DNA of 64,000 bases, the filler included, from Reclinomonas americana ATCC 50394 (lineage: Eukaryota): the NCBI GenBank assembly GCA_048213135.1. It is 13 parts of 13 records of this genome, joined end to end, with 100 filler letters (N's around TTAATTAATTAA, not from the genome) between each part and the next. Parts side by side here need not be neighbours in the genome. Positions count along the whole stretch, not along the records: positions 1 to 17,789 come from AFZH01021583.1; 12 more parts are not named here. One strand, 5' to 3'. Of this stretch, positions 1-31,204 are shown one piece after another (position 1 is the stretch's first letter; every line of letters starts with the position of its first letter). A program made the translations under genes and the position numbers. The notes beneath the pieces are model-generated. The model was not told the origin of the DNA. It made no database searches and worked only from the letters and a program-made list of their open reading frames with translations.

Positions 1-3000
1 TATCTCTCTCTCACGAACTTGCAGTTGCTGAATGACACCGACACATAGGTGCCAATGTACACGGCACCACCGCTGCCGAATGTCGACTTGCTCGACGTAA
101 AGGTGGAGCTGGTAAAAGCTGCCGCCACAGAGGCCGCACTGGTCGAGGTGATATGGACCTGCAACAAGCAGTGAGTAACTCAACAGCGAAGCTGCCGTGG
201 ACACCCACTCACCGCGCCGCCACTCTGCGTGGCCGTGTTGCTCGAGAATGTGGAGCCAGAGATAGTTGCGACGGCAATCTCAGCATACACAGCGCCACCG
301 CTGCCGGCGGCCGTGTTTGTTGAAAACGTGCAGTTGGTGATGGTGAAAATACTCGCCGACGCGCTAATTGCTCCGCCGGAAGCCGACGAGCTGTTGCTCG
401 TCATGGTGGCGTTGCTGAAACTGGCAACTGACGACGTCAGAGTGACTGGTGGAAGAGTTCGTGAAATCAGTTAGTGCTTGAAAATATATCGAGAGCTAAC
501 ACACACATCAAGGATCACGCACATGCGCCGCCACCGGAGGACGCAGTGTTGGATGAATACGTTCCACCAGTGACAGTCAAACTTGTGACACCCGACGCAG
601 CCACGCTTCCAGAATTTGTCGAAGCGTTTCGCGTGACAGTGCATGAGATGAGCTACAAAAAAGAGCGCATTCAGTAGACGACATAAGCACGCGAGATAAG
701 AGACAGCAAAGCTCTAATATGCAAACCGAATTCGTGCCTCCGACAAAGGTCACGGCTTGCGACGCGTGATCTGCAATGGTGACTGACGTGAACGTAACCG
801 TGCGGTTGTAAGCACTCGAGAACACAGCGGAGCCGCCAGATGTGGCGCTGGTGAGGTGTTAACTAATGAGCAGCACGGCGCTAGGCAGACATGCAGGGAA
901 TACAGAATGCGCATGACGCAACCTATTCCTGCTGAACGTGGAATTCTTCACCGCCAGCTCCGCGTCGACAGCAAAGACTGCAGTGGAACAGTCAATAGCC
1001 GTAGTCAGCAGGACAGCAGAAATGAAGGATGAACGAAACTGCCGCCCGCAATGGAAGACTGATTGCTGGTGAATGTCGACGTGTTGATGGTGACAGTGGT
1101 GGCAGTGACGTACACGGCACTGCAAAACAACGTCGGCATCGCGATATTGAGAAGCATTGCAACATAGCGCACAACGTACCCTCCGACACGATTTGCGACA
1201 TTGCTCGAAAACGTGCAGTCCGTGATCTGTGCCAGAAGGCAATAAGTGTCTGAAGCAGGACGACACGGCACTCGGGAGAGCAACACACCGAGTGTGCGGT
1301 ACCGGAGACAACAAAGACAGCAGCGCCGTTGCCAGCAGTGTTGCCGGTGAACTTGGTCGTCGACACGGTGAGAAGCGTGCCGCCGCCCAGTGCCGCAATA
1401 GCGCCACCCAAGCCCGATGAGCTGGCCTTGTTGTTGGCAAATTCACTGCAGGTGGCGCCAACCCGTGAGTCAGCAGTGGAATCAGATGCATGGCCACCAA
1501 AAATCGCACAACGCACCAGTTGTCCGACACGTTGAGAATGGCGTCATCCACAAGGACTGCTCCGCCCTGTGCAATGAGACAAGCGTGAATCAGTCAGTGT
1601 CACTGGCATTCAACCAAAGCCGATTGACGTGCGCACATCGGCAGTACTGGTGTTGAGCTTGAAGGTCGACTGGGATATATTGGACGCAGTCTCCACAGCT
1701 GCATTAGATCTCCACTCATCAGTGAAGCAAGACACGCAACCTACTGCACTCAGCGTACGAACCCCGTAGTGACAGGCCTCCAACACGACCCGTATTGTTG
1801 GTCATGGTCACCGACACGAGACTGGTCGGCGTACCTGTCGTTGTGTCGACAACGAACACAATCAGTGTGAGTAAACAGTGCGCAGGAGTTGACAAAAACG
1901 AACAACAAAGACGCAACTGAGGACAGTGATGGCGCCGCCCGTTTGCGCTCCATTCTGATCGAATAAACTGGAGGCAATGTTGAGTGTGTACGGCGACGTC
2001 ATGGTCGGTACATAAGACGAGCCACTCGAGTAAATGGCACTGGCAGATGCGCCCTGAGAAGAGACAAAAAGGCTGTACATCAGCAGAGAATCTCAACGTG
2101 TGCAACAATCGCCACGTCGCCAAACCGTATTCCTGCTGAACGTGCACGACGTGAGCGTACTGTAGCTCGGATTCGAAAGCGTCAACGCCGTATCAGGCGC
2201 ATTCGTGAATGAAACAGTGGTCATTGACAGCGACGAGTATGACAGAGACACGCGCGGAGTGTCTGCAAACAATTGAGCGTCGGTAAACTGCACATCAAGC
2301 AGCGTGCCTGTCGAAAGAGACACACCTCCGCTACTGCCGACCGTGCCTCCGGTGAACGAGACGCCTGTCATCGTCACCACGGCTGCTGTGTCGAGACTTC
2401 CGCTCATGGCGAACACCACACCACCACCCGAGAAGACGCTCGTTGCGTTTCCGGTGTTGGTGACCGTCAGCTTGCCGCCACCAGAACCCTGCACAAAAAG
2501 AGCGCGTTGGAGCACTGTTGAATGATGAAGCTATGTCATGAGGCGACACGTACCGAGAAGAAAGACTGTGTTTGCGCGCTCAGCGACACAGTACATCCTG
2601 TCATGGACACGGTGCTGGCACCGGTGCTGCTTATCATCGGAATGGTGCTAATGAACAAGGAAATTGTTTGCCCGTTGGCGTTTGTGACCGAATCAAAAGT
2701 GGAACTGGTAAAGGACAGGGTGGAAGCGTCGGCGGAGAAAATAGCGGCATCCTCGGACGACAGCGTCTGAATGAAATCCATCACGAATTTCGAGTTGGTG
2801 ACAGTGACCGTCGCTTGCGACAGAGCCTGTGTGGAGAGGACATTGCACCATGAGCGGCGCGCTGAGAATGCTCAAGAACGCATTCAACAATCTACGCACC
2901 GAAACAAGATTACCGCGACCGTAATACGTCACGTTGTCGAACTTGACCTTGCCAGTAACGCGACCAAAGTTGGCCTGCACAAGTGTGTGAGGCTAATTAG

Positions 3001-3480
3001 CCACGTTCCATTGTTGTGGATAGGCATGCGACAATGGCTGGCGCACCTGGAAAAGTGGCTCACGAAGAATCGTGCCAGGACACGAAATGATCGCATTTGA
3101 CAACGAAAAAGTTCCTTGCACGAGGAAGATGGGGGACGTGGTGGTCGAATGATCAATCTGCGTCGGGTCGGTGGAGACGACACAGCTCAGTGTCATCGGG
3201 CGGGTGGCGTCGGCGGACTTGATGGTCACACCAGGGTCGCCAGAAACAAGTTGCTGTCAACGCAGACGAGCTCGATTCAGTAGGCAGTGAGCACGAGACA
3301 GCAACCGACACCAACGACGCACCTGTGTCAGTGGCAAATTGAGTGACAGACCAGCCTCCACGGTGATGCGACGGCAGCCGTTCTTGTTTCGTGCACTGGT
3401 GATGGCATCCTGAAGTGTGGAGAAGTCGGTACTTACTAGCGGGGTGGCTAGCACTTGGTAATCTGTGCCCGATTTGCTCG
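1..3480 (-). other. Pmp-like right-handed beta-helix region of the giant gene
   Basis: Cap motif STLQDAI followed by repeated FxxNxA...GGA(I/V): FSTNTAAGSGGAV, FSSNTATQSGGA, FANNKASSSGLGGAI, FTGNTAGNGAAV, FDQNGAQTGGAI. Confidence 0.8.
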
Positions 3481-6400
3481 TCAGTACACACAGATGCACA
3501 GCATCAGCCAAATGTCAGTCCTCACCGCAGTCGCTGTGAAGACAAAATGGTTTGCCATGTCAGCCACCATTGCCTGGGAACAAAGACAACGCTCCTCACA
3601 CTAACCAATATTGCGGACATGAGACCCTCGCTGCCGGAAGTTGCGTCATGTCTGCCCACGTGACACCGTCCTTGCTGTACTCCAGGATATTCGGAGCGTC
3701 GCCGTCGTCGGTGAACCCGTACAATTCGAACCTATTCTCACACAGCCCCCCCACAACACAAATGAGCTACCAAGCACAGAAAAGACGTCGCCAGTATTGA
3801 CGCACAAGTTGTCGACATCCTTGCCCACGGCGACGGTGCACGGGCCAAAATTGCGCACAGTGGGATCAGTGGCCATGTCAAACGTCACGCCGGCAGTGAT
3901 CTTGCAAGAGGCGGCAGTGAGTGGGATAGGGTTGGGGTTCGCAGCATCCTGGTTGATGGCAGCCTGTGTAAAAAGAAACCCAAACGCAATCGTGAGACGG
4001 CAGGAACAGTCGCGAGAACTAGAATGTACGAGCGCAGACAGACCAGGGTGTTTGCCGAATTCATCGTCAAACCACCGCGGATGAAAATGGTATCGACATC
4101 CGGCCGGAAGTACACGGCAATGTAGTGTGCGAGGAATTTGAGGGTCGTAATCGAGGATGTTTCGCACACGCGACGAGCGTACTGGCCACGCATATCCGGC
4201 AGTGATGACGCCGTGCACACCGTGCTGCTCAACTGCCCGCGAGATTTCGATCTGTCAATGCCAGGGTGCGAAGACTTAAGCGATCGATGGAGTGCATCAC
4301 ACCTGACCAAATACTTGAGCGGCGACCGAGAAGGTGGTCGGCTTCGACGTGGTGATCGAGTACGAGGACACTTGCCAGTACACATCTGCCGGCGATTGTG
4401 TGAGTGTTGGAAGGGGATACCAACGACAGCAACAAGATGCATGTACTCACTGGCGGTCGCCTTGTTGGGTGACGAGCCCGCATCCACATATGCATCAGAC
4501 GTCGACACTTTGTCCTCAATCGACATCAAGCCGGGTGTTTGGTAGTCAAAATACGTCAAGTAGAAGCTGAGGCGTAGAGGGTCAGCAGAAGGAAGAGAAG
4601 GAAGAGAGGCAACTGTCAAGAGTTCTCATGCGATACGCACGTGTACATGGAACCTGGAGCCAGTGCCGCCGACACGCTCAGTACCGAGTACGGCGAGTTC
4701 CAGTCGAGGCTCCAGTCGTACGCGGTGAGAATGTTGGCTTGCACTTCGTTGAACAAGTACTGCAAACAGAGAACACAAGTAAGTGAGATCGCATCGAAAA
4801 AGCAGGTGCACAGCAACAAAACCGCTCACCGCTGCCGCGCGACTCCTGCACATGGTTGACAGAAAAAAACACGCAAAGTTTTTTTTGTGGTGAGATGCGG
4901 ATGGCGACGAATGAGAGAAGAAGTCTATCACACACACACACACCATTCCGCGCCAATGCGAATCTGGTACGTCGTAGTTGCCGTATTTTGTCGCGTGTCA
5001 AAGTCGATGCCGACGCGATACACGGCGTTGTCGCTGCTGGTGCAGCCAAAAGTGCGCACGTTGAACATTCGGAAGCTGGCCACATTTTGTTTGGAACAGT
5101 ACACTGAAGTGGCCTGCACATGAAACCGATTGTTTAGAAGAAGGGCCACCACAACAAACTGATCAACGCATCGAACATCGCACACCGTCTCGAAGAGATT
5201 CTCAATGTCGGTCCACGACGTCGATGCAGTGATAGGCGATCCCGTCGTGGTAGAGAATGGTCGGGTACCGGCATCGAATGTTGTGCCTGTTACGCAAAGA
5301 CAACGCTTCAATTGAGCGCACGCGGACTGTCGGAATTCTTGCACTATAACACGCACCGTAGACCACATTGAAGGTCACCGGAGTGGCGTTGCCGAGCAAG
5401 TCCACCAGCGACACCGTCTGATCGGTCACCGACGAGTCACCGGACATGGCGTATTGAGCACAGAGCGCAAACGTGCCGGGTGTTTGACCTGCAATTCCGT
5501 CAACAATTAGCATGACACACGACTGTTAAAACACACAGATCGACAATCGAACCTGCCACGGTCACAGCAAGGACGAGCTGTGTGGAGCTGACAAACCACG
5601 CGCTTACAGATGCCGTAGACAGTTTCGTGCCCGCACAATTCGTGTCTGCGCTTATGTACATGGCGGTGGTAAGCGCACTGCTGAGACCCTCGCCAGTGAT
5701 GGTGACCAGTTGGCGCGGTCGGTTGTACAAAGAAGTCGAGGGTGCGATGCTTGTGAACCGGGCTACACGGTCACATACAGAATGCGCCATTTAGGAAAGA
5801 GAAGCCACAAGCACACGATGCCACACCACCACGCGCGCACCATACGACAGCAGATTGCCGACCGAAACCCGACTGCCCAACACGTCCATGCACAAACGGT
5901 ACTGCGACGTGCCGTCGATCGGGCGTGTGACTGGCATCGTGGCAGATACTCGAGTGGTCGTCACAAATTTGTACAAGATGTCGACGGTGGTTCCAGCTGG
6001 TGCCGTGCATGTGTCCGTCGAACTGACCACGAACATTTTCTGCATCCATGGCCGTCAGCAATAGACACTCAGGCAGAGATGGTCCAACAAGGTGGAAAAG
6101 TACTTACCGTGACTGATGTTTTGGTGATGGAGCAAAAGTTGACCGCCAGCGTTGTCACCTTTGTGTCGTCGGCCGTAATGTTGTCGTACAGAGCCGTGGC
6201 AGACACGCTCACAGGCAGTGCGTCTGCGCGGCATCGCGAGTCAGAAAATGGAAAGGAAAAAAACAGCGGCGAGCGAGCTATTGCATAGAACGCACTTGCA
6301 GGCAACACAACCATAAGATTCGACTGTCGTGAGGCGGAGACAGAGGAAATGAGAACCGCGGCACAGAAGAGGAAGAAAGCACATGGGATGCATACAACGC

Positions 6401-9400
6401 ACCGCGACGGTGGACACCGCATAGAACGAGTTTGACAGAAGCGACCGCGAGGACAAGCCCACAAGTTGCTTGTTGATGGAGAGCACGGTACCAGTGCTGC
6501 CATCGGGCTGCAGCTGCCGCAGCAGTGTGTTCTACCAGCACACATCGTCAGCGACACAGCAGGTCCGCGCGATCGTCTAAGAGGCCACACAAACGTACCA
6601 CCGACGACGCCGTGTCGATGAAGAGGGCATCCACGCCATTTCCGGCTATCATGTTGCCGATGGTGGTGGAGGACAGAGAAGCCAACAGGAATTGGTAGGC
6701 TGTGCATAACATCAAGGCAACTGTGATAACATGGAGCACTCTCATCGACGAAAATCAGTAGCAACGCAACAGTCATTGAGGTCAACCAGAGCGACTCGCC
6801 CAGTGCTCTGCAACGACGCGAACGATCAGCAGACCGCAAGGAAAAAATTCGAAACAGAGAGAAAGAGTGGAAGGTGCACACCCCGCCGCCAATGAGCAGT
6901 CGCTTGGAGGGCGTGTTGCCGTCGTCGACGAGCGTCATTCCGCTCATGCTACACACATTAACACACACGCGCGACACCAAATTCAGTGAGGATATGATCA
7001 TACTTACAGAGAGGCAGGCACAGACACACCTTGTCGGCAGTCCACTTGTGAGAAGCGGCCCTTCAACATATGCCGCCATGGTCGCCGTTCCCACTACCGT
7101 CGTCGCCGTACCTGTAGCGACCCATCGAATGAGTGCAACTGCATGTGTGAAGGAGGAAGGCACGAGAGAACAACACGCACATGGCAGATACACGTCGCAG
7201 GTGCTGGTCAGCGCCAGCGTGCTAACGGTGCGCAGCGACTCGTCTGCACATCATTGTGAGGTAAAGCACTTTTCTCTCTTGCATCCTCTGTGCACAACAA
7301 CACTTGCCTGCGACATACAACTTGGAGTTGACCGAGTCAAAATACAGGGCAGTTGGCTTGACGAATGCTGCCGAGATGGTGCTCACAAGACCTGCGGTGC
7401 ATTCCAGTTGGTGCGTGGTAGAGAAGTAGGCGAATGAGCAGGGAGCGCTGCACGCAACGTCCTTGCAACGACACGCGACGGATGGAGCCACTGCCAACGT
7501 CCGCCACGTACAGGATCATGTTCGTTCTATCCGCCTGCACGACAGGAAGAAGAGAGTCAGACACGGGACGACTCCCTCGCCATGCACCAAGAAGAATGCC
7601 TTCACCTGCATGGCGGTCGGCTGTGAAAACTGCGCCGACTCAAACGGCGCGTCTCGTGTTCCTGCCGTGCCGTAGGTGCCAGCGACGCTGGTCATTGTGC
7701 CTTGTGGATCGATGCGCCACAGGACGTGTGACTGGTGCACACATGTCAACTCACTACTCATCGACTAGCACTGAGCAACAAGACAACTCACCGTCGAATC
7801 CGTGACAAACACGTCACCGCCGACGCTGGCGACTTCGGCAACCGCAGATGCGCGCGATGCAAGACCGGGCGCGTTCACGGGTACGCTGCATGCGGTCGGC
7901 GACACTGCGCGCGCAAGAGAGGAACATCAGCGGGCCGACAGATGCTGAAGGTTCTTTTTACACAAATCAAACTCACCGACAGTGACCGTGCCGAGCAGCA
8001 AGTACGACCAGCCCGAATTCCACGACACACACAAATACCACGTGCCGGCGGTGGCAGTCGACGCATCTACTTTGATGAACTTGCGAGAGTCACCAGACGG
8101 CGAGCTCAACATGGCACTTGGCAGGGTTCCAGTCGTCGATGACGCGCCGTTGCAGTTGCTACTCGTCATGATAATGGCAGTCGCCGAGCTCGATAGGTCC
8201 GGAAGCGCTGTGCCCTTGAGCACAAGCACCTGATCCGCGGCCGCAAATATGGTCGATGGCGTGGGAGTGCCCGTCACCGACACTGAGAAAAACGAAACGA
8301 GTGAGAGACATCGACAGGAGCTGCGTCATGCATTCGCACATGTACGAACCAACGCGCAAGACACCGGCTGCAGAAGCTTGTCCACTTTTGGTGGCGCACA
8401 CGTGATACACGCCAGCCGCAACTGTTACTCCCACGGAGATATTCACGGTGCAGAGTGACGTGCTACTGCAGCTGCTTGACGGAACGCTTGTGTCGTTGAC
8501 CTGCGTCGTGCAGTCGGCAGTGGTGGCCAGCATCCACGTCGAACTGTCAATGTTGCAACCCTTGACAGTGACGGCGACCTGCGACGACAGCCCAGCCACA
8601 ACAACGGGATTCGACACGAAAATCGGGGCCACTGCAACGATTGAAACAAGTGAGACTTTCACACATCGCCGTGTGACTATCCAATCACACAAGACGCACC
8701 GCGATAGCCGAGGAAGGTAATGCTCGACTGCATTCACATCGACGTACATCAGTGAGCCGTGTCACACATAGGAAGGTAAGTACGAGAGTGAGCGACTCAC
8801 CGCCTGCGAGAAGAGCGCATTGTAGCCTTTCAACGACACGCCGGTAATGTTGTTCTGCGAGTATCGCGGCGATGCCACTGCAGGGAGGGTCAGAGGTCAG
8901 CGAGGACAAGGAGACTCATGCACAGAAAAAGGTGCTACACACCACCGCCACTGGTAAACTCATATAATCCTTGAGTAGAAAACAGCGCAAGACCGACAGA
9001 GGAGGACCCGACAGGAGTCAAGGCTGTTGCTGAGGTGGACGCGATCACGACCGGTACTGCATTTGGGCAAGCAGAATGGTTGGCGCTCACACCTCTCAAA
9101 GTCAACAACACCGCGTAAATCACACAAACCAGCGACCGCGGGTCCAGTAATGATAGTTTGCGTGGACGTGGACACGTACAGGGTAGTGGGGCCACCCAGG
9201 TCTACAGCAATAGCCTTCGGTGATGTGATGCCAGTGAGGTATGTGGTGACAGCGCCGGTGCCTGCCACACGGACAGGAAAAATGACGACTCAAGTCAGCC
9301 AAGCAACTGGTCACTCGACAGAAGCGAAGGGCGAACCAGTGAGTGCGACTTGTCGAATCGAATTGTTGTCCGTATCCGCTACGTACAGCGATGTGCCGGA

Positions 9401-12400
9401 CACATCGAGTCCAGAGGGGGAATTGAACTGTGCACATACATTCACCTTGCTGAGCGGGTGACTGGAGATGACACTCGACGAGGATTTCACTCACCGTGGC
9501 ACTCGTTCTCACAGCACTGTTAGTCGAACCAGCGACACCCGCCGTTCCAGCATAAGTTGTCACGAAGCCTGCATGAAGGGAGACAACAATTAGATTCATC
9601 ATCCGCCGCCACCAATGTGCGAACCGGGCACCGCAGTCAGGCATACATACCATCAGTCGAAATCCGTCGAATCACATGGAAGCTCTGCATCACGACGTCG
9701 TGCAGTCAGTACACGATTCTCATAGCAGAGAGAGATGAGCGTGCACGCGTACCGGCTCAGCCACAAACACGTTCTCTGAATAATACGCAATGCCGCCGGT
9801 GGTGGCAGTCCAGCCGACTGAGGAGGCCAAACCGGAGAGCGACGATGCACTTGTAGCGCGGGCTCCATTACCAGCAAGAGATGTTACGTTGCCGGCGGGA
9901 TCCACGCGACGAACGTACGACGCCTGCACACATTCAACCGTGAGAAACAACGATACGAGCACAATCGTCCCTGTCACCGCACTGACCGATTGATCAACCA
10001 CGAATATGTTCGACACACTCGGCGTATACAACACGGCAGAGATGCCCGAAAACGAGTTACCGGTAAAGGTTGGAGCACACACAGCCGTATCTGCGCGAGT
10101 TGCAACATGCATTCACATTTGCGATGTCAAGCCGATCATGCACACACACTCACCAGCAACAATGGTGACGGTCACCGTGAGAACGAGAGCAGCATAAGTG
10201 CCGTGAGTAGCCTTGATACTCAGGGAGGTCGTGCCGGATGGGAGCGCACTGCCGACGACTACAGTCGAGCCAGTGACCTTGTATCCAGTCTGGAAACAGT
10301 GCGAAAGCAAGTGAGGACGTGTTGACACACAGGAGTACGGCATGCACACAGGAGCACACCGTTACAGTGATGAGCGAGTACGAGTACACATTGGCGACCG
10401 CAGCGGTGTTGCTGGGCGGTAACAGTGTCGATAGTGATCCGACCAGTGTGTCTTCACTGGAGCCCAGAGACACCACGTTGGGCGACAGGCTCACGGTAGT
10501 GGGTCCGAAGAACACTGGAAGGTAGATGAGCGAACATCAGAATTTCTGCGCGCCATCGTTTCAACTGCTTACCATTGATGGTAAATGACACTGGTGTGGC
10601 GATCGATGAAGTACCGTCGCTCACAGAGACCGAGACGACAAACTTCAGGTTGGCAGTGGAGGCGAGAGAGAGCGGAATCGTCGTCGTCGGTTTCCACTCC
10701 AGGTAGGCGTACGAGCACGGGCTGGCCAATGATGTGAGCTGCAGATAGGTCGTGTCGCCTGAGGTGAACGTGAACGTGTGACAGTCCTTGGGATTCCCTG
10801 GAGATGAGCAAACGGAGTAAGGCAGGGCGATCCGGTCGACACGAGACACGCGTGTCGCAACTGTCGATGGAGCGAAGCGTGCCAATCGGTCGCGACGCAG
10901 TGTACGGCGTGCTAACGGTGATCCCGTCAGTAGCCGATGTCGCCGAGGCGACAAACAGGTTGAGGGTCTCGGCCGCGCACGCAGTCCCGGAACAACAGGT
11001 TCCAACGGCGCCGGAACACGCCAAGATGTCCGTCGGAGCATAGTTTGCTGCACACAAACGATGGTGTCAACGCACAAGCACAAGGCGACAGCAGAACCGT
11101 GGCATACTGCGGGACGAAACTCTCATTGACGGTGCACGTTGTGCTAAAATTCAGCGTTGCCGAACCAGAATCGGTCGCGGTGACGCTGAGTACGTATGAC
11201 CCTGACAAGGCCAGGGTGCCTTTCTTGAACGAGAGGCCAGTGACACGGAATGCGTCGACAAGTGGCGTCGCGTCGCCAACTGCCGTGACAGAGTTGAGTG
11301 TCAGCGTGTTGCTCGCACCACTGCCATCCGGATCTGCGCAGCAAAACACAAAAATCCACATGAACAATGCAACGCGTGTGCACCATCACCATTCAAACTC
11401 GCCCAACCGTACCGGTAATGGAAAACGAGCCAAGTACAGCGTCAGCAGTCGCCGACGGGTCGTACGACGTCGGGCACGTAATGGCTGATGGCGCGCGATT
11501 CACCGCCACAGTGAGTGCCTGCGAGAACGTCAAGCTGCCGGTACCACTATCTGTGGTCTGTAGCCGAATCCGAATCGAGGTGCTGGAGAACGAATTTGCC
11601 AGAATTGTGGTTGCATTGTCGACCATCAGCGAGCTGTTGCTGATGGTGAACAAGCCGTTATCGTTGTCGCCGGTTCCCGACACCTTGGCATACTGGAATG
11701 TCTGTGCCGGCAGATTGGGATCCGTGGAGGACAGTGTGCCAATGGTGGTACCAGCCGGCACACCAGCAGTCGGGATCAGAAGCACGTTACTGGCAGCATA
11801 GGCGCCACTCAGTGTCACGCTTATCGCAGTCGGAGCACGATTCTCTGTGAGCGGGGACACGTGGTCAGCTGCAGTCGCTAGCCGAAGCAATAGATGCTCA
11901 CGCAACGCTCCGTGAGTGTCAGCGACACTGTTCGCGCCAACGTTGAGAATTGAGTATCGGTCGCCGTGAGGCTGACGACAATGGTGTTTTTCAGTTGCGC
12001 AGACGTGGCCGCCAGCAGCAGCTGGTTGCTGCTGTTGACAGTGAAGAGCGACTTCAGGTCAAAGTTGTCGATCTGTCGCACCACCGCGCTTAGCGACAAT
12101 GTATTCTGCCTGTATGCGGCGGCAGAATCACCATCTGCAGACAGAGATCAGCTAAGGCAGAGAGGCACACACAGAAAAAACGCGGTGACGTACCAACAAT
12201 GGCAAAGGTGCCTATGACTGCGCCCACAGTAGCCGTCGTGTCGTAGGTCGACGGTCCCGTGATATCGGTGGCTGGATTGTTGAGTGGAAACGTAATGGTC
12301 GTGGTGGTGAACAGATTCGTCGGAGTGCCATCGTCGGTGGCGCGGACGCGGATGGTCAGCGAGGTGACGCCACTCGAGTATGCGATGCCACCGACAGCGG

Positions 12401-15400
12401 GAAACAGCGTGGTGCCGACAATGCGGAACTTGGCATTGTCCAATGCACCACCCACACTGTCGAGGGTAAAGGTCAGCGTCTGACCGACGTTGGCGTCCGA
12501 TGCCGACAGCGTGCCGATACTGACTGCATCCGACCGCCCAGTACCCGTGATGGGCACCACAAGCGCCCCCGAAGTCGCATAATCAGTGCCCGCTGTCGCT
12601 TGCAACACAATCGAGGTTGGCGCCACATTGGCTGCACAGGACGGAATAGAGCGTCGATTCGAGTGAGCGACATGTGGCGGCGACAAACAAAAGCCAGAAG
12701 CTCTTGACTCAACTCTCCTTCAGCTCAAACGTCTCCTCATAGAACAGCGTACTGAGCTGTGAGTCTTCCGCGCGCACACGGACGGAGACCGTACCGGTTG
12801 GAATCGCGGAGCCCAGCTTTAACGTCAGTCCAGACAAGGTGAATGCATTGGTCAGTGCCACGCCATTTTGTGTCACCGACACCAACGAGAGCGTGTTGGT
12901 CTTGTACGGTGCCGCATCGGCATCTGTTACAGTAACGGGGCAGAAGGGGGCGTCAATACAAGAAGCAGCGAACTGGAGCACAACAGTACCACGCAAACAC
13001 ACCAACAATCGCAAAGTCGGTGGTGACCGAGTCATTTTCCGTGCCGTTTTGGTTGTAATTGGTGGGTCCGGTGATGTCGGTGGGGGCATTGTTCAGCGTC
13101 ACCGTGTATGACAGGTCTTGCGAAAGGCCGCCAGAGTCTGTCACACGGAACTTGAGCGACAGTGTGCCGTATGTCGGAGCCGCAACACCAGATGCCGACA
13201 CGCGGATCTTGTTGGTGGAGTACACCTCGAATAAGCTGTTACTCGTGCTGTTGTCCGTCGGCAGCGAGTATGTCAGCGTCTGCGCCGGCAGATTGGCGTC
13301 GTTGGCGCTTAACGTGCCAATGTCGGTACCCGCGACGAGACCACTGGTCGGGATCGGCAAAACAGTTGTCGTTCCGGTATAGGGACTTGAGAGAGTAAAG
13401 GCGAGGCTTGTCGGCGCCACATTGACTGCAAGAATGTGAGGCGTGAGGAATGATGAGAATCGGATGTACGCAATTTGTTGACAAAACTTTCCGAGAGCGT
13501 GAACGACTTGGTGACAAACAGAGTCGACACTACCGAGTCGGTGGCCTTCACGCTGACGGTGACGTTCCCGGAGGGTGTGCTTGTCCCGAGCGTCAGCACA
13601 AAGGTAGACGAATTCAGCGACAACACGTTGTTGCTGAGTGCGCTGCCGAGGCTGTCAGTTATCGAAACGATGCTCATCGTGTTGCTGTTGTACGTCGTGT
13701 CGGCATCTGGTGATGATGAAGTGGCAAAGTGAGACGGCCTGTTGACTGAGCATACAGGCGCGCACACAGACACAGAAAAAGCACGCACCAGTCACGGTGA
13801 ACGTTCCAATGGCGGTGCTTGTGCCGGTTCGATCGTACGTGCTATTCGAGAGCGTAATGTCGGTTGGGGCGTTATCAAACGCAATTGTGATGACCGAGTC
13901 GGTGGATGCTGGAGTGGAGCCAGAGTCGGTGGCGCGCACCAAGATGCTCAACGACGCTGATTGACGCAGTGGCAGCGCCGTGGCCAGCACGAGATTTGTG
14001 CCGGTGATGGTGAACTTGGAGTTGTCTGTGGATCCTACGCCACTCTGAAGGCTGAATGACACCGTCTGGCCCGTGTTGACGTCTGTCGAGGAAAGGGTGC
14101 CGACGGTGATGCTGGCTGCCAGTCCGCTTGCAGGCACTGCCAGCACCAGAGGATTCGAGGTGGAGTATGCGTACGTTGCTGAGAGGGTGAGGGCCGGTGC
14201 CGTTGGCGGCGTGTTGACTGCACACACCGCTCTGTCAGACCACCGAGAGGAGATGATGGATGGAAGAGCAGAGGTGGCACGCAACATTCAGACACCGTGA
14301 TACTTTCCTCGTACCAAATGCCCGGAAACGTTGCATCAGAGGCACGGATGGTGAGCACATATGTGCCCGAGGGCGATGACGTGCCGATGATGAGAGTTGA
14401 CCCATCTGATCCGGAAACATCAAAGAAGCCCGACTGCAGCACCGAGTTCTGACTCACACCAGACAGCGTGTACGAGTTCGTCGCGTACGTAGAAGAGTCC
14501 GTATCTAGTGACCGCAAAAACACATCGTAAATCCCAGAGCATTTATGCTCGTGTCGTTGACACACACACCTGTGCTCGATATTGTGGCCACTGTGCTCCC
14601 ATTTGTCGGCGGCACAACGTACGCTGTCGTGGACAGGTTGATCTTCGTGGCCGGACGGTTGAGAGTGATCTGTTTAAGGAATGCCGTGCTGGTCATCGCT
14701 GGTGAACTGTGTGCACGTGTCTCGCGAGTGAGCGCACTGCCCATCTACACACGCACGCACACGCACGCACGCACCCATTATCGGTGACCAAGATGCAAAT
14801 ATTGAGTGTGGACGTCGACGACACAGTACTCGGCGTGATGGTGGATGCTGTCGACACGAGTCCGGTGGAAGAATTGATGGAGAACAAGTTGTTGTTGGAG
14901 GTACCACTGCAGCCGGAGCCGAGTGAAAAAGTCTTCGTCTGCCCACTGTTCACATCGGTTGCCGCCGCTGTGCACACGCTGGTGGAGGCGGCGACACCAG
15001 TCTTGAAAATGTTGAACGCTCCCGTGAATGTCTCCGTGCAACCAGTAACCGTGGGAGCCTCGTTCTCCTCGGTGATGTTCAGAGCAAAGTCGGCCGTCAG
15101 CGATGTGAAATTCGTGTCCGTGGTGCGCAAGTTGATCGTGTAGGTGCCAGAACGCGTTCCCGTGCCAATGAACAGTTTGGAGCCGGAGATGGTGAACAGC
15201 GTGCTGCTGGCGGCACTTCCGTCCAACTTGGTAATGAAACTGACAGCGACGGCATTGGTGTTGTACGTTGCTCCCGTGTCATTGTCTGGCGATGCCGAGA
15301 AAGGTCAGTAACGACGCACAGCTCACCGACGCATGGCATCGCACTCACCGGTGACAGTAATATCGCCGACTTCGGTTCCCTGGGTGGCCGACACCTTGTA

Positions 15401-17535
15401 GGTCGTCGGAATGACGACAGCTGTTGGCGGATTGTTGATCGGCAAACTGTATGTGTACGTGGTCGACAGTGAGCCGTCCGAGGCGCTGACCACAATGTAC
15501 AGCGGACTCTGAAGGTAGCCCGTCAGCGGCGTATTGTTTGCCGGGTACAAGCTGCCGGCTTGGTCCATGGCAAATTTGCTGTTGCTGTCCGTGACGCCAC
15601 TGGTGGTGGTGAACGAGAAGGCGATGGTCTGACCAGTGTTGTACTCGGACGCCGAAAAAGTGCCGATCAGTGACGTCTGCCCGATAAGCGCGTAGGCACC
15701 CTTGGTGACCAGGCTGGTGTCGGAGGCGGTGAAGGCGACATTGTACGGCGCGTAGTTCACTGCACATGAGCAACGAAAACAAGCAAGTGAGCAGGCGAAT
15801 GGTGATGAGAAAGCAAGAGGCACCAGCGTGTGACGCACACTCGGTCAGAATGAACACCTTGGTGAACGTCAGCGTGTTGAATGTCGAACTGGTGGCCTTG
15901 AGCGTCACCGAAACCGGCCCGCTAATCACCGTTGTGCCGAGTGAGAGCGTGAGACCCGACACGGAAAACACGTTGGACAGTGCCTGATTGTTGGAGTCGG
16001 TGACCGAGTCCACCGTGATGGTGTTCCCGTTGAGCGGCGAGGGGTCACCGTCTGTGCAGAGTGAGCGAGCAATCGACGGCAATATGCAAGCAAGAGAGGC
16101 GACTGGGACGCACCCGTCACTGTGATCGTAGCCACCGTGAGTGTCAGTCGGCGAATATCGTACGTTGAAGCCGACAGAGTCAAATTCGTGGCAGCATTGT
16201 CGAGCGCGATCGATACAGATGTCGTGGACGTGGTGGATCCTCCACTGTGACGGCGATGAGCTTCTTCCACACATCGAAAAGTAGACGACGCAAACAGCAC
16301 TGCTGGGTGTAACCAACGCAACTTTCCGTCGCTGACAGAAAACTTAAAGGTCAGCGGTCCGACTTTTGGCGGGAGCAATGTTGCTTTCAGCGTGACGTTG
16401 CCGGTGGACGAGTCGACGTTGAACAAGGAGCTGCTGTCGGAACCATTGCTGACAATACTGAAGGAGAGTGTTTGTGCCGGTGTGTTGGGATCGGTGGCCG
16501 ACAACTGCACCAGCACGGTACTGGTGGGAATGCCCGTCGCCGTCAACGGGATGGCGTTGTTGGCGCCGGCCAGATTCGTCTCCACGTTCGTGTACGTCAG
16601 GCCGGTCGGGGCCTCGTTGACTGTGCGTCAACGTATCATGAGTCATTGTCAAGCGGGATGCACACCTTCATCACCCACGCGCAGCGTGCGTGCACGCAAC
16701 TCTCAGTCAGCGTGAACGTCTGATCAAAGAACAACAAAGAGTAGCTGGAGTCGGCGGCGCGAATCGTCACCGACACGTTGCCGCTGATGCTCGCGGCCGA
16801 GCCGCGCACCAAAAAGTAGGTGCTACCGACCTTGGAGACGGTGAATGCGTTGGCCACGGACTGCGAGTTTACCGTGGGTACGTTGATTTTGAGGGAGGCG
16901 GACGAGTCAGGATCTGCGGCGGTGGGGTGGAGTGAGGGGAAGAGAGGGACGAAGAGAAAAGAGAAGGGAGGGAGAGAAGAAAGGGGGGAGAAGGGAGGGC
17001 GAGAGAGAAACACGCACACATATATACACACAAGCGCCGCACCAGTGATGGTAATGGTGGCCACGGATGCGCCAGAGGCCGACGTGCGGCTGTAGGTGGT
17101 GGTGGAGAGCGTGATCGCCGAGGGTGGATTATTCAGCAAGATCGTTGTCGTGAGAGTAGAGCTCGTCAGCGCCGGCGTGCTGCGAAGGTGTGAGAGGTAA
17201 GCCGTGCGATACATGCACACACGTGCCGGCAACACTCGACAAGAGACGCAACCCGCTGTCTTGCGCGTAGGTCTTGACAACGAGGCTGCCCACGACAGGC
17301 CCCAGCAGCGTGTCGGAGGGGTACAGTCCGGTGCCGCTGATAGCAAAGAGGAAATTGTTGCCTTGTCCATCGGCCAGCACGTACGTAATCGTCTGCGTCG
17401 TATTCGCGTCGGTGGCCGAGTAGGTGCCGAGGAGAGTCGAGCTGGGGACGCCGCCGGTCACCAACGGCAGGAACCCGCTGTCCTTCAGTGGTTGGAACAC
17501 GGCCGTGAATGCCAGGCCAGTGGGCGCGATATTAT
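1..17535 (-). CDS. Giant multi-exon extracellular adhesin-like protein (cadherin-like repeats + NHL repeats + Ig/IPT-like + putative lectin-like + Pmp-like beta-helix); 5' end lies in the gap, 3' end lies beyond the window
   Basis: Ser/Thr-rich exons separated by mostly 45-100 nt GT-AG introns that splice in frame where tested (e.g. TVTGGTYSSNTASSGGGA|FTLTSSVASFSNATM near 400-580; STGRVALVDLND|SYQFLLAS near 6690-6805). One junction near 4255-4310 is not cleanly resolved, so single-gene status is likely but unproven. Confidence 0.8.
5365..8640 (-). other. Four Ig/IPT(TIG)-like domains, in two pairs that each follow an NHL region (about 7975-8640 and about 5365-6225)
   Basis: Repeated pattern of V.I.G...C...GxY/WxLC: AGVYHVC, AGTWYLC, GTSQYRLC, PGTFALC. 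Also FTSIAPSTSLYNRPRQLVTITGEGL. Confidence 0.5.
6290..7885 (-). other. NHL-repeat beta-propeller region 2 of the giant gene
   Basis: VFVTDST|SHVLWRIDPQGTMTSVAGTYGTAGTRDAPFESAQFSQPTAM; ILYVADVGSGSIRRV; FVKPTALYFDSVNSKLYVAD. Confidence 0.75.
8700..10075 (-). other. NHL-repeat beta-propeller region 1 of the giant gene
   Basis: Spliced sequence includes YVRRVDPAGNVTSLAG, HVIRRISTDGFVTTYAGTAGVAGSTN and FNSPSGLDVSGTSLYVADTDNNSIRQV, which match the NHL repeat consensus. Confidence 0.8.
10153..17535 (-). other. Region encoding about 18 cadherin-like repeats within the giant gene
   Basis: Repeats start with NIAPT, NNPPS, NEAPT, DNAAT, NYAPY, NNPPT, NEAPT, NRPAT, NTPPT, DNAPT, NVAPT, NNAPT, NVAPT, NNPAT, NRAPT, NRAPS, NYAPT and FFGPT. 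Internal motifs GTLSxTDxN/DxD and VxATDSG resemble cadherin Ca2+-binding motifs. Confidence 0.75.
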
Positions 17536-17709
17536 CTGCAGCGGCAAAGGAAAATCAGCCTAGCACAACTGTGCCTCTCTCGCTCTCTCGCTTCTCCAAG
17601 GATGCTGTGAAGACAGAGAGGCGCTGCTTGCAAGAGGGTACGCTCTTTCCGATCCTGCCTCTCTTCGTCATCTTTCGAGTGTGCAAGTGCCCCAACTCCC
17701 ACCGTGCCA

Positions 17710-17712
<3 letters not shown>

Positions 17713-17782
<70 letters not shown>

Positions 17783-17787
17783 CACAC
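17713..17787. repeat. (CA)n microsatellite in an intron next to a gap
   Basis: Directly visible. Confidence 0.95.
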
Positions 17788-17789
17788 GA

Positions 17790-17889
17790 NNNNNNNNNNN
17801 NNNNNNNNNNNNNNNNNNNNNNNNNNNNNNNNNTTAATTAATTAANNNNNNNNNNNNNNNNNNNNNNNNNNNNNNNNNNNNNNNNNNNN
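17790..17889. other. Artificial 100-nt scaffold spacer N44-TTAATTAATTAA-N44. Others at 26351, 27776, 37667, 39093, 41760, 51148, 52673, 54692, 56581, 57715 and 60540.
   Basis: Identical N-flanked six-frame-stop linker occurs 12 times. True gap sizes are unknown, and some must exceed 1 kb because the AGL N-terminus and the VPS35L middle are missing. Confidence 0.97.
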
Positions 17890-18001
17890 TCCCCTCTCCC
17901 CTCTCCCTCTCCCCTCTCCCCTCTCCCCTCTCCCCTCTCCCCCTCTCCCCCTCTCCCCCTCTCCCCCTCTCCCTCACATGCGCGTTCGTGTTTGTCGACA
18001 G

Positions 18002-19331
18002 GCGTGAAGTGCGCAAGCGACCGGCCTTCCGGCGCACCACCAGCCTCGACTCCAACGAGAGCATCGAGCCTCTGTCGCCGGCAAATCCGCGGGTGAATGT
18101 GGCGCCCATGTCGCTGCATCCGTCCGACTTTTCGCTGGCTCCTGAACCGGAGGTGCCGGCCGACGCCGAGGACGACAAGGCCGTGTCGGAGCCTGATCGG
18201 GTGCGCGAGTCTCCCACCGGGGCGGCGGTGACAACACGCAGCCTGCGGGCCGGTGTGGATGCGACCGACGACGACGCCGGCGACGACAGCAGTCAGGAGG
18301 CGATGCCGGCAGAGACGCTGCTTGCGGCGTCCATGTCGGAGCGGGGAGCCGGAGGAGGACCGTCGTCGTCAGCGGCAGCTTCAGCGGCCGCCGGAGCTCC
18401 GGAGGAGATCACTTCGGTGGCTTCGCCATCGTCGGGTTTGGTCAGTTTTGGCCGCATGTTGCGCGACACGCTGGAGCGATACAACATGGCTCCAGCCCCC
18501 AAGCACTGGTTCTTTGTCGACCAGGTGAGAGGGAGGGAGGGAGCGGAGAAGGAGGGAGTGCAATTCCCTCTTTTTTTCGCTTTTCTCTGACATGCGGGTT
18601 GTGCGCCTCAGATTTTGAGCGTCAACAGCGTGAGCGGCGGCCAGTTCAGCGAAATGGGACCCGGTAATCGGCGTACCATCCGTGCCGTGGCACGCAAGTT
18701 TGAGCAATGTGCGTTGCGATGGAAGTTCTGCCAGCAGCTCGATTGCATTATTCTCACACACCGTTGCAGCTTCACGCGGAGTACAACTGGTGTGCGTGCG
18801 CTGGCTGGAGTTGTCGCCAATGCCGCACTCGAGCATGTCGTCGGCCGTGGCCGGCTTGGTCCGTGCGGGCAATCCACTCGAATCACCACCTCAAGAGGTT
18901 AATCTCTCTCTCTCCCCAACTGTCGTGCTTTCGCTCCTTCCTTCCACTGACCGGCGCATGCATGCAGCGTGAAATCTTTGTGGAGACACCAGAAGGAGCC
19001 GAGCTGGTTGACGTGCTGCGCGTACAACGCCGCGAGGCACAACTCCGTGCTCTCCGCCTGCTTTCCTCCTTGCAGCATTCACACGTTCTGCGATCCACTC
19101 CGTATTCTTCGGAGAATCCACGGCATGAGGGTCTCCTGCAGCAACTGTGGGACCAGGTTACGTACGGCAAACACCTCCATCCATGTCGATGACGGCAGTC
19201 TCACACCGCCGCACGCCGCAGGTGTTCCCTGACACGCCGCTCGCCGCTCGCGTGACGGACCAGTGGAAGCGACTTGGGTTCCAGGTGCGTGTGTGTGTCT
19301 TTGTGTGTCTTTCTCTCCTTGTTTCCCTTTT

Positions 19332-19382
<51 letters not shown>

Positions 19383-20748
19383 GTGTGTAAATATATCTTC
19401 TTTTTTCTCTCTTTCTCTGTCTTTCTGTTTCTCTTTCTCTCTTTTCTCTTCTTTTCTGTCTTTCTCTCTGTCTTTCTGTTTCTCTTCTTCTCTTCTTCTC
19501 TCTTCTCTCTCTCTTCTCTCTTCCTCTCTCTTTCTCTCTTCCTCTCTTTCTCTGCCTCTTGTCTTACTCTCTCAATTTGTCCCTGTCCCCAATGTGTCAC
19601 CAACCCTCGCTGCACTTCGCAGGGACGCGATCCTGCCACCGACTTCCGGGGCATGGGCCTGCTGGGCCTGCACCAGATGCTGTACATGAGCAAGTGGTAT
19701 CCGGACCTGACGCGCCAGTGCGTCGAGCAACACATGCGGTATCCGTTCGCCGTGACCTCAATCAACATCACCAGTCTGCTCGTCCGCGCCTGTGATATTG
19801 CTGCTGGTGAGTGAGAATTCAGTCCCCTCAGTTGTTGAGTGCCTCCGTCGTCTCATGCATGCTGCGCTGTGCAGCCGAGATATGGAAGGAGAGCGAGCTC
19901 AAGGCAGACAGCTTGCCGCCGGCTGGCATGCCGGCGTCGCCAACCTCTGCACTGCGCGACATGACCGAGGGGCAGCGCAAGGCCCTCAAGCATGTCAACG
20001 GCAATGCGCTGTTTTCGTTCCTCACCCGTGCCTCACTGTTCCACAGTCCAGACGACATCTTCAACGAGGTGAGTGTGTGTCTGCGAAGTCTTTTCTTGCG
20101 GTCGCAGGCCTGACTGTTACTGTGTGCGCACGCCAGGTGCACGTGGCGTACTTTGAGTGCTTGAACAAGGTCTACATTGAGAGCGATGGCGGCTATCTCG
20201 ACTTCAACGAGGTGATGAGAGTGTGCGAGGAGCGGTTGGCTATGGCGCTGTGCCCGCGATCGCAGGTACGGCCAGCTGTGTGTTTGTGTGTGCCTCCGAC
20301 GTTAAGAACCCTCATCTTCTACAAACACCAAAAACAGGACCCAACACGGATCCCCGTCGCATCACTGCCGGCGTTGCGCGAGGCTCTTCGTGTGACTATC
20401 ATGCCGCCGGAGCTGCAACGCATCGAGTTGAAGACAATCACTGACGAAATGTTCGCCTTGTCACCTGGTGCGTGGCCTATCGTTCTCCATCCCTTTGCCT
20501 TGCCCGAAAAGACTCACTCGTCGGTGGCAGAACAAGTCACGGACTTGAGCCGGCTCACCCAAGTGCACTCGGCATCGGCGTCGCTCGAAGCCGTGCGTGA
20601 CGCGCCTGTTGACATTCAGCGTGACGCAGAAGGAGACGAGGAGATAGAAGAAGAGGAAGACGGCGAAGATGATGACGACGATGAGGAGGAGGAGGAGGGT
20701 GCGGCGGGCGCAAGCGGCAGTGGTACCGCTGTTGCGAGTGCCCTGTGA
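18002..20748 (+). CDS. ELMOD: ELMO/CED-12 domain protein (ELMOD-type Arf-family GAP), 5' incomplete, with acidic C-terminal tail
   Basis: Spliced HEGLLQQLWDQ|VFPDTPLAARVTDQWKRLGFQ|GRDPATDFRGMGLLGLHQMLY...YPFAVTSINIT. The ELMO signature WxxLGFQGxDPxTDFRG, including the catalytic Arg, is intact. Confidence 0.9.
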
Positions 20749-20908
20749 GACGCGTCTGTTCCTTGTCTCGAATCTTTCGTGTTCTCATGGCGGTCGGGAG
20801 TGAAAGAAAAAAAGAAACAGAGCACCTGTCGTTCTTGCACATGCATTCACTTGCGTTTTTTTCTTTATTCGCACCTCTTAACTCTTTTTTCATCTGCCCC
20901 GGCGCAGA

Positions 20909-23900
20909 TCACGTCGCAGTGACCACACCGAGTGACTTGGACGCGCGCTCGTCCGGCACGTCCAACGTGCCGCTCGGCTCGCCGCCCGATCCCACCAACG
21001 CCTCTAACATGTCCACACTATCCTTCTTTCTCGCTACGCTGCAAATATCGTACAAATCGTCCAGTGCATCCAGCAGTGTGGCCGATGACCACGCCTGCAG
21101 CCAACCTGCGTAAGCCTCGAAACAGGAACACAGGGTAGAGGGACGGCACCACAAACCTGCGTCTCGCAGCTGAACCGACAGTGCGCGCCACCCTCATTCG
21201 TCAACTCCGGCAACCCGCGGTACGGCCCGTTGATCGCCGACACGTGTTGTTGCAGCAACCGGAAGATGTAGTAGGAGATACTTAAGCGCAAAAAAATGTA
21301 CGTCAGCACATGCAAACAAAAGAGGAGCGGTGCAAGTGGACGCAGACAAACCGGCCCGGCTCGCAAGAAGCAAAACGCGAGTCGAAACGCATCTGTATCG
21401 GGAACGACACAAGGAGGGTGAGAATCAAGAGAGCCAATCAATGTAAAGCAAAAGAAACAGCAAACCTTGGCTCGCAAGTAGTATCCGAGTGGCCACAGCC
21501 TGGTGTCGACGGCGAGTGGTTGAGAAGACAATTTCACAACGGTTCATGGGAGTAAAAACGCGCAATCTCACCACTCGGGACCCTGATGATAATTGAAGCC
21601 TCGCGCCACCGAATAGTCCTCCGAGTCCAAGCTGTTGTCGTACACGGGCCTGTAGGCCCAGTCAGCCGGATCCAGTGTCTTCATCTGCGAGTACACAGTG
21701 GTAAGACAGGGGATGGATGGGAAGATCATGCTCGCCACCAACGCACCCCCAGCTTGGACACCAACACTTGCTCGACCATCTTCAGCGCGTGCGCCGCATG
21801 CTCGTGCACAAAGAGCTCCGGCGCCACGCACATGGCCACACACTGATTTGGTCGCAACTGGTAATCGGTGAACTGATCCGTGCTCCGGTACACATCCTTG
21901 TAGATACCACGACGATGCACCAACGACGGCGTAATGTCATACGTGTTGGCGTAGTCAGCCAGATCCGAGGCACTTCCCGCCGACGTCATGCTCGACGAGC
22001 ACGACAGGCCAAGCTTGTCCAGTGCCGCAGAGGAGCCTCCAAAGTCTGCCACAACAACCCCAGAGAATGAGAATATGTGACGATTGAAGAGGAAATCACC
22101 GCCAAACTCACCAGTCAGGCTCGTCGACGTGACAAGCCGCATGGAAGTTGACGTGGCGGGAATGTAGAAGCACCGCTCAAAGTTCTCAAACACCAACGCT
22201 GAACATCACACACGCAGCGCAGTCAGCACATGCCGAGCGAGCGGGGCACGCAGAGTGTTGAAGAGGGAGGGCGGTGCGTACCTTGCCAGTCGCTGTAGAA
22301 GAATGTCTCCTCTGTGTCAAAGAGGAACACGCCGGCGTACGGGAACGCATCGGGATCCGAGCTCTGCAACTCGCTCAACCACCGCAGAGTGGAGAACAGG
22401 AGACCGGCAATCTCGATGGGGCATCCGTCACGGGGGGTGGCTGGAATGCCAAAGTTGTTGGCCACGGTGCTCTCGCCCACCTTGTCCATCCATGTGCCTG
22501 CGGGAAAATGGGGTTCAGCGAGTCGTCGGCGTAGTGCACCAACCCATCACGAGGATGCACGAACCGGCATTGAACTTGTTGCCGCCAAAGAGAAGACCGG
22601 TCTCGCGATCCAGATCAATGTCGACATTGAAACCATCGGATGTCTGCGAGAGACAACGAATGGGCCACACACGTCACAAAGCGCAAGCAAGGCGATAAAG
22701 AGTGCGTCCACGCACCATGCGCTCGTCAATGTCCTTGCCGGCGTTCCACTGCACCACGACCGCTGAGTAATGCACACGCGAGCAGTAAATCATGGGCCCC
22801 CAACATACCTCGCGGAAGTGGATGCCATTGGCGTGCTCCTCCATAATGGACTGAATAACATCACGCAGCGGCACTGTGGACTCTTGCGCAGCCGGTGTCT
22901 CGCGACGATTCTCACGGCGTCGCACCGTGGCCTCACGGCGGTGCGGCAAGCTGCGCGGACTCGACGCCGACTTGCCGCTGCTGCTGAGACTCATGGTTGG
23001 CGACCGCGCCGACGCGTGCGGGGATGGTGACCGAGACGCCGACTGTTGCAGGGAATACCCATCAGCACCTCTCACACGCACTCGGACACAAAAAGACAGC
23101 AAGCCGCGCACCACCGATCGGCCAGAATCCTCCTGCACGTGGATGGTGCGCGGATCGGGGCGATGGATCGGGAAGCGCAGCTCCACCGGCTTGTCCAGAA
23201 TGGCCAACCCGTCGGAGGGGTGCATGGTCACGTAGTCCTGCACCGCTTGCAGGAACCACCACACTATAGTGACGGAAAAGAAGATGAGTGAGCTTGCTTT
23301 GGCTGAGAACCTTCACTGCCCGCACAAGCACAACCGACCTGAATCGCGACTGTTGTATCGCGGATTCCGACCGCCGTCCTTTACACATGGCACACAATCG
23401 TCAGCATGAAAGTCTGGAAGATACAAATACACACATGCGCGCACATACCAGCAAGTTGGGAATGAGACCGTGGCGCAGACACCTAGCAAACCCGATAATG
23501 ACGTCCTCGGCCTCCTTGAAGCGTCCCGTAACCAGCATCAGGCCTGCCAAGTAGCGCGCATGAGCACCTTCATTCGCAAGAACGTGACAGTGGAAACACA
23601 TGTGACGTACCGCGCAGAGAAATGAACGTGTCGCGACCCCAGGCGCGCATGTAGCCAGTCGCAAAGTGGTCCAGACCGGCGGCCAGACTCGGCGACGGGC
23701 TCTGCGCGCACGGAAATGAGACAAAGCAAGCCGAGAAGCGGTGATGCGCGGACCACCTCCAAAACAAACCTTGTCGTGCTCAATCGGTGCATTGGGAATG
23801 TTGCCAAAGAGCTGGATGCTGGTCAGTGCCAGCGCACGTGTGAAATCGCTAGCGTCGACCACCGACTGCACGAATCGGCAACAGGTCAGAGGCACACCAT

Positions 23901-26276: not shown

Positions 26277-26289
26277 CTGTGTCACGCGC

Positions 26290-26330
<41 letters not shown>

Positions 26331-31196: not shown

Positions 31197-31204
31197 ACAA
31201 CAGC

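Follow-up and report, generated by a model that had tools for sequence, protein, structure and literature searches.

A probable giant mosaic adhesion-type gene of Reclinomonas americana, recovered in greater part

Introduction

Giant RTX-type adhesins of Gram-negative bacteria combine a long Ig-like stalk with distal ligand-binding modules. Among proteins with cadherin-like (EC) repeats, two motifs, LDRE and DxND, separate true cadherins from bacterial cadherin-like domains, and Pythium genes carry between 2 and 17 EC domains, according to the available part of PMC2926784. Other surface adhesins are built on a beta-helix whose rungs carry the FxxN and GGA motifs of the Pmp proteins. Outside Chlamydia these motifs are known from Trichomonas, archaea and further bacteria (PMC10715098, in the part available), and an adhesive role has been claimed for the Pmp-like proteins of Trichomonas vaginalis (bioRxiv 10.1101/454884, likewise in the part available). 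Here, we describe a locus of the eukaryote Reclinomonas americana ATCC 50394 in which modules reminiscent of these systems appear to be joined by splicing. It lies at the start of a stretch of 64,000 nucleotides (the window) assembled from 13 records of GenBank assembly GCA_048213135.1, of which AFZH01021583.1 supplies positions 1 to 17,789. Positions 1-17545 of the window probably represent the greater part of one giant gene for a secreted or surface-anchored protein of adhesion type. The combination of modules is unusual, and every recognisable module is of an already known kind.

Exon-intron structure

Positions 1-17545 form a single exon chain on the minus strand, read from ~17545 down to 1, which in the curated model comprises 73 exons and 4082 residues with no stop; both termini of this partial gene are missing. 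An initial annotation, made from the sequence and naming no strand, had proposed that a eukaryotic gene rich in introns, spliced in frame and open at both ends, encodes several thousand residues here, and the model agrees with it on each point, with a donor near the window start and an acceptor at the first exon. Stop-to-stop open reading frames (ORFs) of the minus strand contain NxAPT starts, NHL-like blades and FxxN/GGA runs, and nothing recognisable was found in the plus-strand frames of the gene region. The base composition of the region is 54-57% G+C, with A exceeding T on the plus strand.

Exons were joined by a custom chainer that scores codon log-odds, requires GT...AG introns of at least 35-40 nucleotides (nt), keeps the phase, forbids in-frame stops and has no intergenic state. 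A first pass without splice matrices gave 56 exons and 4043 amino acids (aa), and a pass with matrices trained on the first gave 77 exons and 3999 aa. When the splice penalty was varied from 4 to 20, chains of 60-77 exons and 3900-4086 aa were returned, none with an in-frame stop; the core stayed constant, and 12 small or alternative exons shifted, mostly in 7600-6200 and 5300-3460. Four donors were moved manually where the repeat pattern indicated a better site. The 72 introns of the final model are all GT-AG and measure 39-204 nt (median 70 nt; 50-90 nt in 64 of the 72). CAG stands at the 3' end of 67, and donors carry G at +3 in 42/72, G at +5 in 55/72 and T at +6 in 42/72, giving the extended consensus GTG(C/T)G(T) / (T)GCAG. 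The G+C content is 57% in exons against 52% in introns. Among the non-coding gaps of the model, the three longest measure 204, 172 and 129 nt, the last of them within a cadherin repeat.

As controls, the identical self-training pipeline was applied to the plus strand and to eight dinucleotide shuffles. The real minus strand scored 2836, with 65 of 77 introns between 50 and 90 nt. The same DNA read on its plus strand gave 1411 and 31 of 88, and the shuffles gave scores of 138-269 with 3-16 such introns each. Since the plus strand still reaches 1411, the pipeline evidently inflates scores, and the splice signal was therefore checked in the matrix-free first pass. In that pass, C stands at -3 in 44/55 acceptors (48% for AG sites overall, p 1e-6) and G at +5 in 32/55 donors (29% for GT sites overall, p 6e-6); of these 55 introns, the final model retains 31 without change. 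Homology within the predicted protein, which is independent of the program, provides the strongest evidence for the gene: 18 repeats become alignable after splicing, with introns at homologous sites.

The short, unstable exons in the middle of the gene could also reflect decay, in which case the locus would be a silent pseudogene or a repeat relic instead of an expressed gene. Such a reading is quite improbable, because ~12.2 kilobases (kb) of coding sequence remain open through all 72 junctions, intron phases are conserved and the repeats are old and diverged (35-39% identity among A-type exons), a state that would be hard to keep without selection. The shuffled controls, moreover, yield chains of only 1093-2617 aa, at far lower scores.

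The cadherin-like array

The 5' half of the chain encodes 18 cadherin-like (EC) repeats (10155-17533, minus strand; model residues 5-1966), all of which can be aligned. A-type repeats of 107-139 aa with the motif SATDxNTGQT alternate with B-type repeats of 98-104 aa with the motif TVTDxD, forming nine two-domain units; the A-type exons are 35-39% identical to one another. A profile of eight EC exons searched against the PDB retrieved 40 distinct sequences, every one a cadherin, protocadherin or CELSR, the best at 1.1e-18. In a phmmer search of 1.84 billion representatives, a single 169-aa exon matched 506 proteins, 145 of them at ≤1e-10 and 21 at ≤1e-30, none above 43% identity; the best match (1.3e-68) is a protein with 23 matched stretches. 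Two bacterial cadherin proteins gave 14 and 34 high-scoring segment pairs in tblastn, all of them within 11354-17446 on the minus strand. The Pfam Cadherin family (PF00028) reached at best 22.6 bits against a cut-off of 28.8, in scans of single ORFs and exons.

A DxD/DxN motif is retained in most repeats, as is an 'A/T-x-D-x-G' motif, and none of the 18 carries LDRE or DxND. By the criterion given in the available part of PMC2926784, the predicted repeats are bacterial-type cadherin-like domains and not 'true' cadherins. The nearest relatives point the same way: they are multi-repeat proteins, 30-35% identical, the best of them at 32-35% with 15-25 matched stretches each, and the informatively named ones among the ten top clusters belong to bacteria (a 'cadherin domain-containing protein' of a Nitrospira metagenome-assembled genome and another of Paenibacillus plantiphilus, and a 'gliding motility-associated-like protein'). 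The initial annotation had counted about 18 cadherin-like domains with NxAPT starts and had sensed a bacterial-adhesin-like flavour; the count holds, and so does the flavour as far as the cadherin part is concerned. It had also suggested a stalk made rigid by Ca2+, which found no such backing: with neither LDRE nor DxND in any repeat, a Ca2+-rigidified stalk is unproven.

The introns of the array follow the repeats closely. A phase-1 intron lies immediately 5' of the DxD motif in the eight canonical B-type repeats, another phase-1 intron lies one codon ahead of NxAPT at 7/8 B-to-A junctions, and a phase-2 intron follows the 'ATDSG'-type motif in three A-type repeats. Overall, 17 of the 21 introns in the array are in phase 1, and the exons are mostly 1-1 symmetric. 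In animals, such an exon pattern is the classical companion of extracellular modules that duplicate and shuffle; in this case it occurs in a protist gene. The array has been expanded by tandem duplication of a two-domain unit of two to three exons flanked by phase-1 introns.

The similarity of the cadherin repeats to bacterial proteins raises a further alternative, namely that the DNA itself is bacterial, a contaminant or a recent transfer, in which one long ORF is broken by frameshifts and the 'introns' are artefacts. The interruptions are hard to reconcile with this explanation: there are 72 of them, with a tight length mode of ~70 nt, a lower G+C content and an extended consensus that is already present in the matrix-free pass, and from repeat to repeat they interrupt homologous codons. 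The flanking genes are also split and of eukaryotic type (glycogen debranching enzyme, WD40). A bacterial origin of the DNA is therefore scarcely credible.

Propellers and Ig-like domains

Downstream of the array, two beta-propellers alternate with two pairs of Ig-like domains, all on the minus strand. Propeller 1 (8630-10154; model residues 1967-2250, 284 residues) is of the NHL-repeat type and has ~5-6 blades by eye. Pfam recognises one blade, in exon 9338-9427, as NHL (2.4e-5, 24.5 bits against a cut-off of 20), and does so also on ORF 9314-9490; the other blades were recognised by eye only. Propeller 2 (6222-7977; model residues 2441-2746) has no Pfam match of its own and lies where the exon model is least stable, and is homologous to propeller 1: blastp aligns the two at 3.5e-12 across 155 aa and, along almost their whole length (292 aa), at 6.8e-8.

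Two Ig-like domains of ~90-115 residues each follow either propeller: ig1 (8366-8629) and ig2 (7978-8365), encoded by one exon each within 7978-8629, and ig3 (5761-6221) and ig4 (5285-5760) within 5285-6221. The last of these is a putative IPT/TIG domain, with a marginal Pfam TIG match on exon 5554-5760 (1.8e-4, 21.9 bits against a cut-off of 20.9). In blastp comparisons, ig2 resembles ig4 at 1.4e-5 and ig1 at 0.005, and ig1 and ig3 are linked weakly, at 0.005-0.018. A profile of the four domains found no match in the PDB at E≤1. An AlphaFold2 (AF2) model of ig2, made from the single exon without an alignment, is all-beta and of low confidence (predicted local distance difference test, pLDDT, 53.1). 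A Foldseek search with that model returned nothing at E≤0.001 (best E 0.24), and its weak list, consisting mostly of Ig domains, is not counted as evidence. A metagenome scan with ig2 gave 593 pattern matches, none of which was confirmed. Because propeller 1 matches propeller 2 at 3.5e-12 and ig2 matches ig4 at 1.4e-5, the predicted propeller-Ig-Ig block is a tandemly duplicated module.

The unclassified segment

Between ig4 and the beta-helix, the model contains ~340 residues that we leave unclassified (3596-5284, minus strand; model residues 2966-3303), encoded by short exons of at most 63 aa. Pfam scans of eight exons and one read-through piece at E≤10 gave one spurious HTH_54 match, single pieces being a weak test. 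No usable match came from an Atlas search with exon 4044-4232, and phmmer searches of the PDB with pieces of the segment gave nothing under 0.05. An internal duplication was not convincing (one 31-aa match, E 0.004). The segment contains an 'S-K-D-G-x-T-W' motif and a stretch with a presumed likeness to PA14. The initial annotation of this segment as two lectin-like domains has no match to a family, a structure or an Atlas entry behind it, nor any clear sign of duplication within the segment, in tests too weak to exclude it.

The junction of the segment with the beta-helix (3463-3731) is ambiguous, with at least three in-frame joins across 3731-3460; the frame encoding '...ILEYSKDG' stays open for 24 codons beyond the donor chosen by the program.

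The predicted Pmp-type beta-helix

The chain closes with a predicted right-handed beta-helix region (1-3667, minus strand; model residues 3304-4082+), which spans at least 779 residues and extends off the window. Pfam Chlam_PMP (PF02415) matches it at 1.6e-10 and 8.8e-10 (40.5 and 38.2 bits, the cut-off being 20.6), and Pfam Beta_helix matches at 1.2e-4 to 1.7e-4, under its cut-off. The region contains 15 FxxN-type motifs and 11 of the form GG[AGSV]x, eight of the latter being GGA[IV]. These Pmp-type rungs are spaced ~26 residues apart and confined to the last ~450 residues of the model; the N-terminal part of the region resembles a beta-helix cap by eye only. Neither an autotransporter beta-barrel nor the Pmp middle domain appeared in Pfam scans of the available part, from which the C-terminus is missing. 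An autotransporter barrel is not expected in a eukaryote.

A single-sequence AF2 model of the beta-helix exon 2126-2488 has a pLDDT of 38.8, and comparison of the same exon with longer proteins of up to 2000 aa found none at E≤0.01, which is weak evidence. AlphaFold tends to over-predict beta-solenoids for repeats, as stated in the available part of PMC11795689. The order first proposed for this half of the gene, NHL, two Ig-like domains, NHL and two Ig-like domains, followed further on by a Pmp beta-helix with FxxN/GGAI motifs, is thus recovered in the matches of 24.5 bits for NHL and 21.9 bits for TIG, in the homology of the propellers (3.5e-12) and in the Chlam_PMP match of 38-40 bits against a cut-off of 20.6.

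One gene or several

The exon chainer is able to fuse unrelated genes, and ran into a glycogen-debranching gene when given more sequence. The chain could therefore consist of two or more same-strand neighbours, such as one gene each for the cadherin repeats, the NHL/TIG part and the Pmp helix, and its two weakest junctions, 6224-6395 (172 nt) and 3463-3666 (204 nt), both lie at module boundaries. Three features make such a fusion unlikely. The largest gap within the chain is 204 nt, compared with more than 3 kb to the next gene upstream. Each module boundary is spanned by an in-frame intron of ordinary size and consensus, including the position near 4255-4310 where a break between genes had initially been considered possible and where an ordinary 70-nt intron (4233-4302) is found. 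Finally, the propeller-Ig-Ig block is duplicated in tandem within the chain. A single gene across 1-17545 is thus very probably the correct reading.

Several points weigh against the interpretation of the locus as one giant gene for an adhesion-type surface protein. The claim of a single transcript follows from sequence logic. The absence of stops in the chain is a consequence of how the program is constructed, the self-trained pipeline reached 1411 on the wrong strand, exon calls are unstable at 7600-6200 and 5300-3460, and the junction between the unclassified segment and the beta-helix has at least three in-frame solutions. For the ~340 residues of that segment, and likewise for the ~330 residues with which the beta-helix begins, no relatives were detected. 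In the cadherin array, no single ORF or exon reaches the cut-off of the Pfam Cadherin family, and the lack of LDRE and DxND in all 18 repeats leaves Ca2+ rigidity unproven. A signal peptide, a transmembrane segment and an anchor are unseen, both termini being missing.

Gene ends and neighbouring sequence

On the 3' side of the gene, the frame stays open up to a GTGAGA donor ~15 nt from the window start. On the 5' side, the first modelled exon begins at an acceptor, and the preceding intron enters a (GT)n tract and then a contig linker (17546-17889 on the minus strand, the linker itself at 17790-17889), so that the 5' end of the gene is absent from the assembly. A crude screen found no signal-peptide-like first exon in 17536-21000, and no cadherin-like (EC) sequence was found beyond 17800, including 17890-21000.

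The linker is 100 nt long (44 N, TTAATTAATTAA, 44 N) and recurs in identical form eleven more times in the window; most of the twelve copies have (GT)n, (GA)n or (TC)n microsatellites beside them. The other eleven lie at 26351-26450, 27776-27875, 37667-37766, 39093-39192, 41760-41859, 51148-51247, 52673-52772, 54692-54791, 56581-56680, 57715-57814 and 60540-60639. Contigs are thus strung together in the window at assembly breaks caused by repeats, and distances across linkers therefore carry no genomic meaning.

The next gene upstream, more than 3 kb off and with a linker between, is a split glycogen debranching enzyme gene at ~21000-26400 on the minus strand, with a Pfam GDE_C match of 9.1e-9 on ORF 23404-24156 and best relatives that are 24-33% identical (animals, fungi, Neospora). 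Two plus-strand open frames lie between the giant gene and the debranching enzyme gene, at 17838-18587 (250 aa) and 19756-20745 (330 aa), the second without a Pfam family. Further on, a WD40-repeat exon is found at 27977-28309 on the minus strand (Pfam 1.8e-8). At 30600-31730, both strands carry a long tract of trinucleotide and homopolymer-codon repeats that is open in several frames, with runs of N, T, D, H and Q on one strand and of L, V, W and C on the other; the DNA here is of low complexity and not evidently a gene.

No paralogue of the giant gene was detected elsewhere in the window by tblastn at 1e-4. Gly/Ser/Asn-rich ORFs on the minus strand at 60595-63471 (for example 61593-61994 and 62947-63471) are Pmp-like by eye. 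For these ORFs, including those at 61.6-63.5 kb, Pfam gave no match at E≤0.1, and tblastn at 1e-4 revealed nothing similar to the giant gene.

Proposed function

The modelled protein is 16% Thr and 14% Ser and contains 46 N-x-S/T sequons and 45 Cys. This composition, together with modules that are exclusively of extracellular type, fits a heavily glycosylated protein that would be secreted or displayed at the cell surface. From the analogy with bacterial repeat adhesins, with chlamydial Pmps, which are surface adhesins with the same motifs, and with Trichomonas, which has Pmp-like proteins, we infer that an adhesin or receptor would be the most economical reading. The ~2000-residue array of cadherin/Ig beta-sandwiches would then serve as a long spacer, and the propellers, the unclassified segment and the beta-helix may act as ligand-binding or adhesive modules, with the Pmp-type helix as a possible binding surface. 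Such a protein would share its design logic with giant bacterial repeat adhesins and with Pmp adhesins.

The lateral acquisition of modules and a role in prey capture, both raised at the outset, are conjecture. One could go further and propose that the gene is a protist counterpart of the bacterial giant adhesins, assembled by duplication and shuffling of phase-1-flanked exons from modules of bacterial descent (cadherin-like, NHL, TIG and Pmp helix), and that the ~340-residue segment is a new ligand-binding fold that confers specificity for prey, substrate or host surfaces; taken together, these two proposals make a doubtful, highly tentative hypothesis.

If transcribed as one unit, the gene would encode a mosaic surface protein among the largest yet described from any protist, and would be a clear case of bacterial-flavoured adhesion modules, namely Pmp rungs and cadherin-like repeats lacking the calcium motifs of metazoans, set within a typical eukaryotic exon-intron framework of phase-1 module exons. 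It bears on how eukaryotes assemble extracellular adhesion machinery outside animals, and on whether the cadherin-like arrays of protists have a bacterial or a pre-metazoan ancestry. The recognisable modules are all known, and no long-standing question is opened by this gene alone.

Comparison with known systems

The combination of domains was not recognised when the locus was initially annotated, and no protein or paper with the same combination has come to light. Similarity to the C-terminal 2000+ residues was found in none of 159 proteins (150 of them the closest cadherin relatives; phmmer, E≤1e-3), and literature searches, with supplements outside their scope, returned no paper on cadherin, NHL and Pmp modules in one protein. 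Individual parts can nonetheless be set beside four known systems. Giant bacterial cadherin-domain proteins share with this gene tandem EC-like repeats and NxAP linkers, mostly lack LDRE and DxND as well, and differ from it in that the gene is spliced and eukaryotic. The non-metazoan cadherins of choanoflagellates and of Pythium and Phytophthora resemble it as proteins of unicellular eukaryotes with many tandem EC repeats; they keep LDRE and DxND, according to the available part of PMC2926784, whereas the 18 repeats described here carry neither and have their nearest relatives in bacteria.

Chlamydial Pmps and the Pmp-like proteins of Trichomonas have the same repeated FxxN and GGA[I/V] motifs ~26 residues apart. 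In contrast to the chlamydial Pmps, the helix of the giant gene forms the tail of a predicted protein of more than 4000 aa with cadherin, NHL and TIG modules, and no barrel or middle domain was detected in its available part. With the RTX-type adhesins, for which secretion and anchoring must differ from those of a eukaryotic protein, the likeness is one of design logic only: an array of ~100-aa beta-sandwiches is followed by varied binding modules, a beta-solenoid among them.

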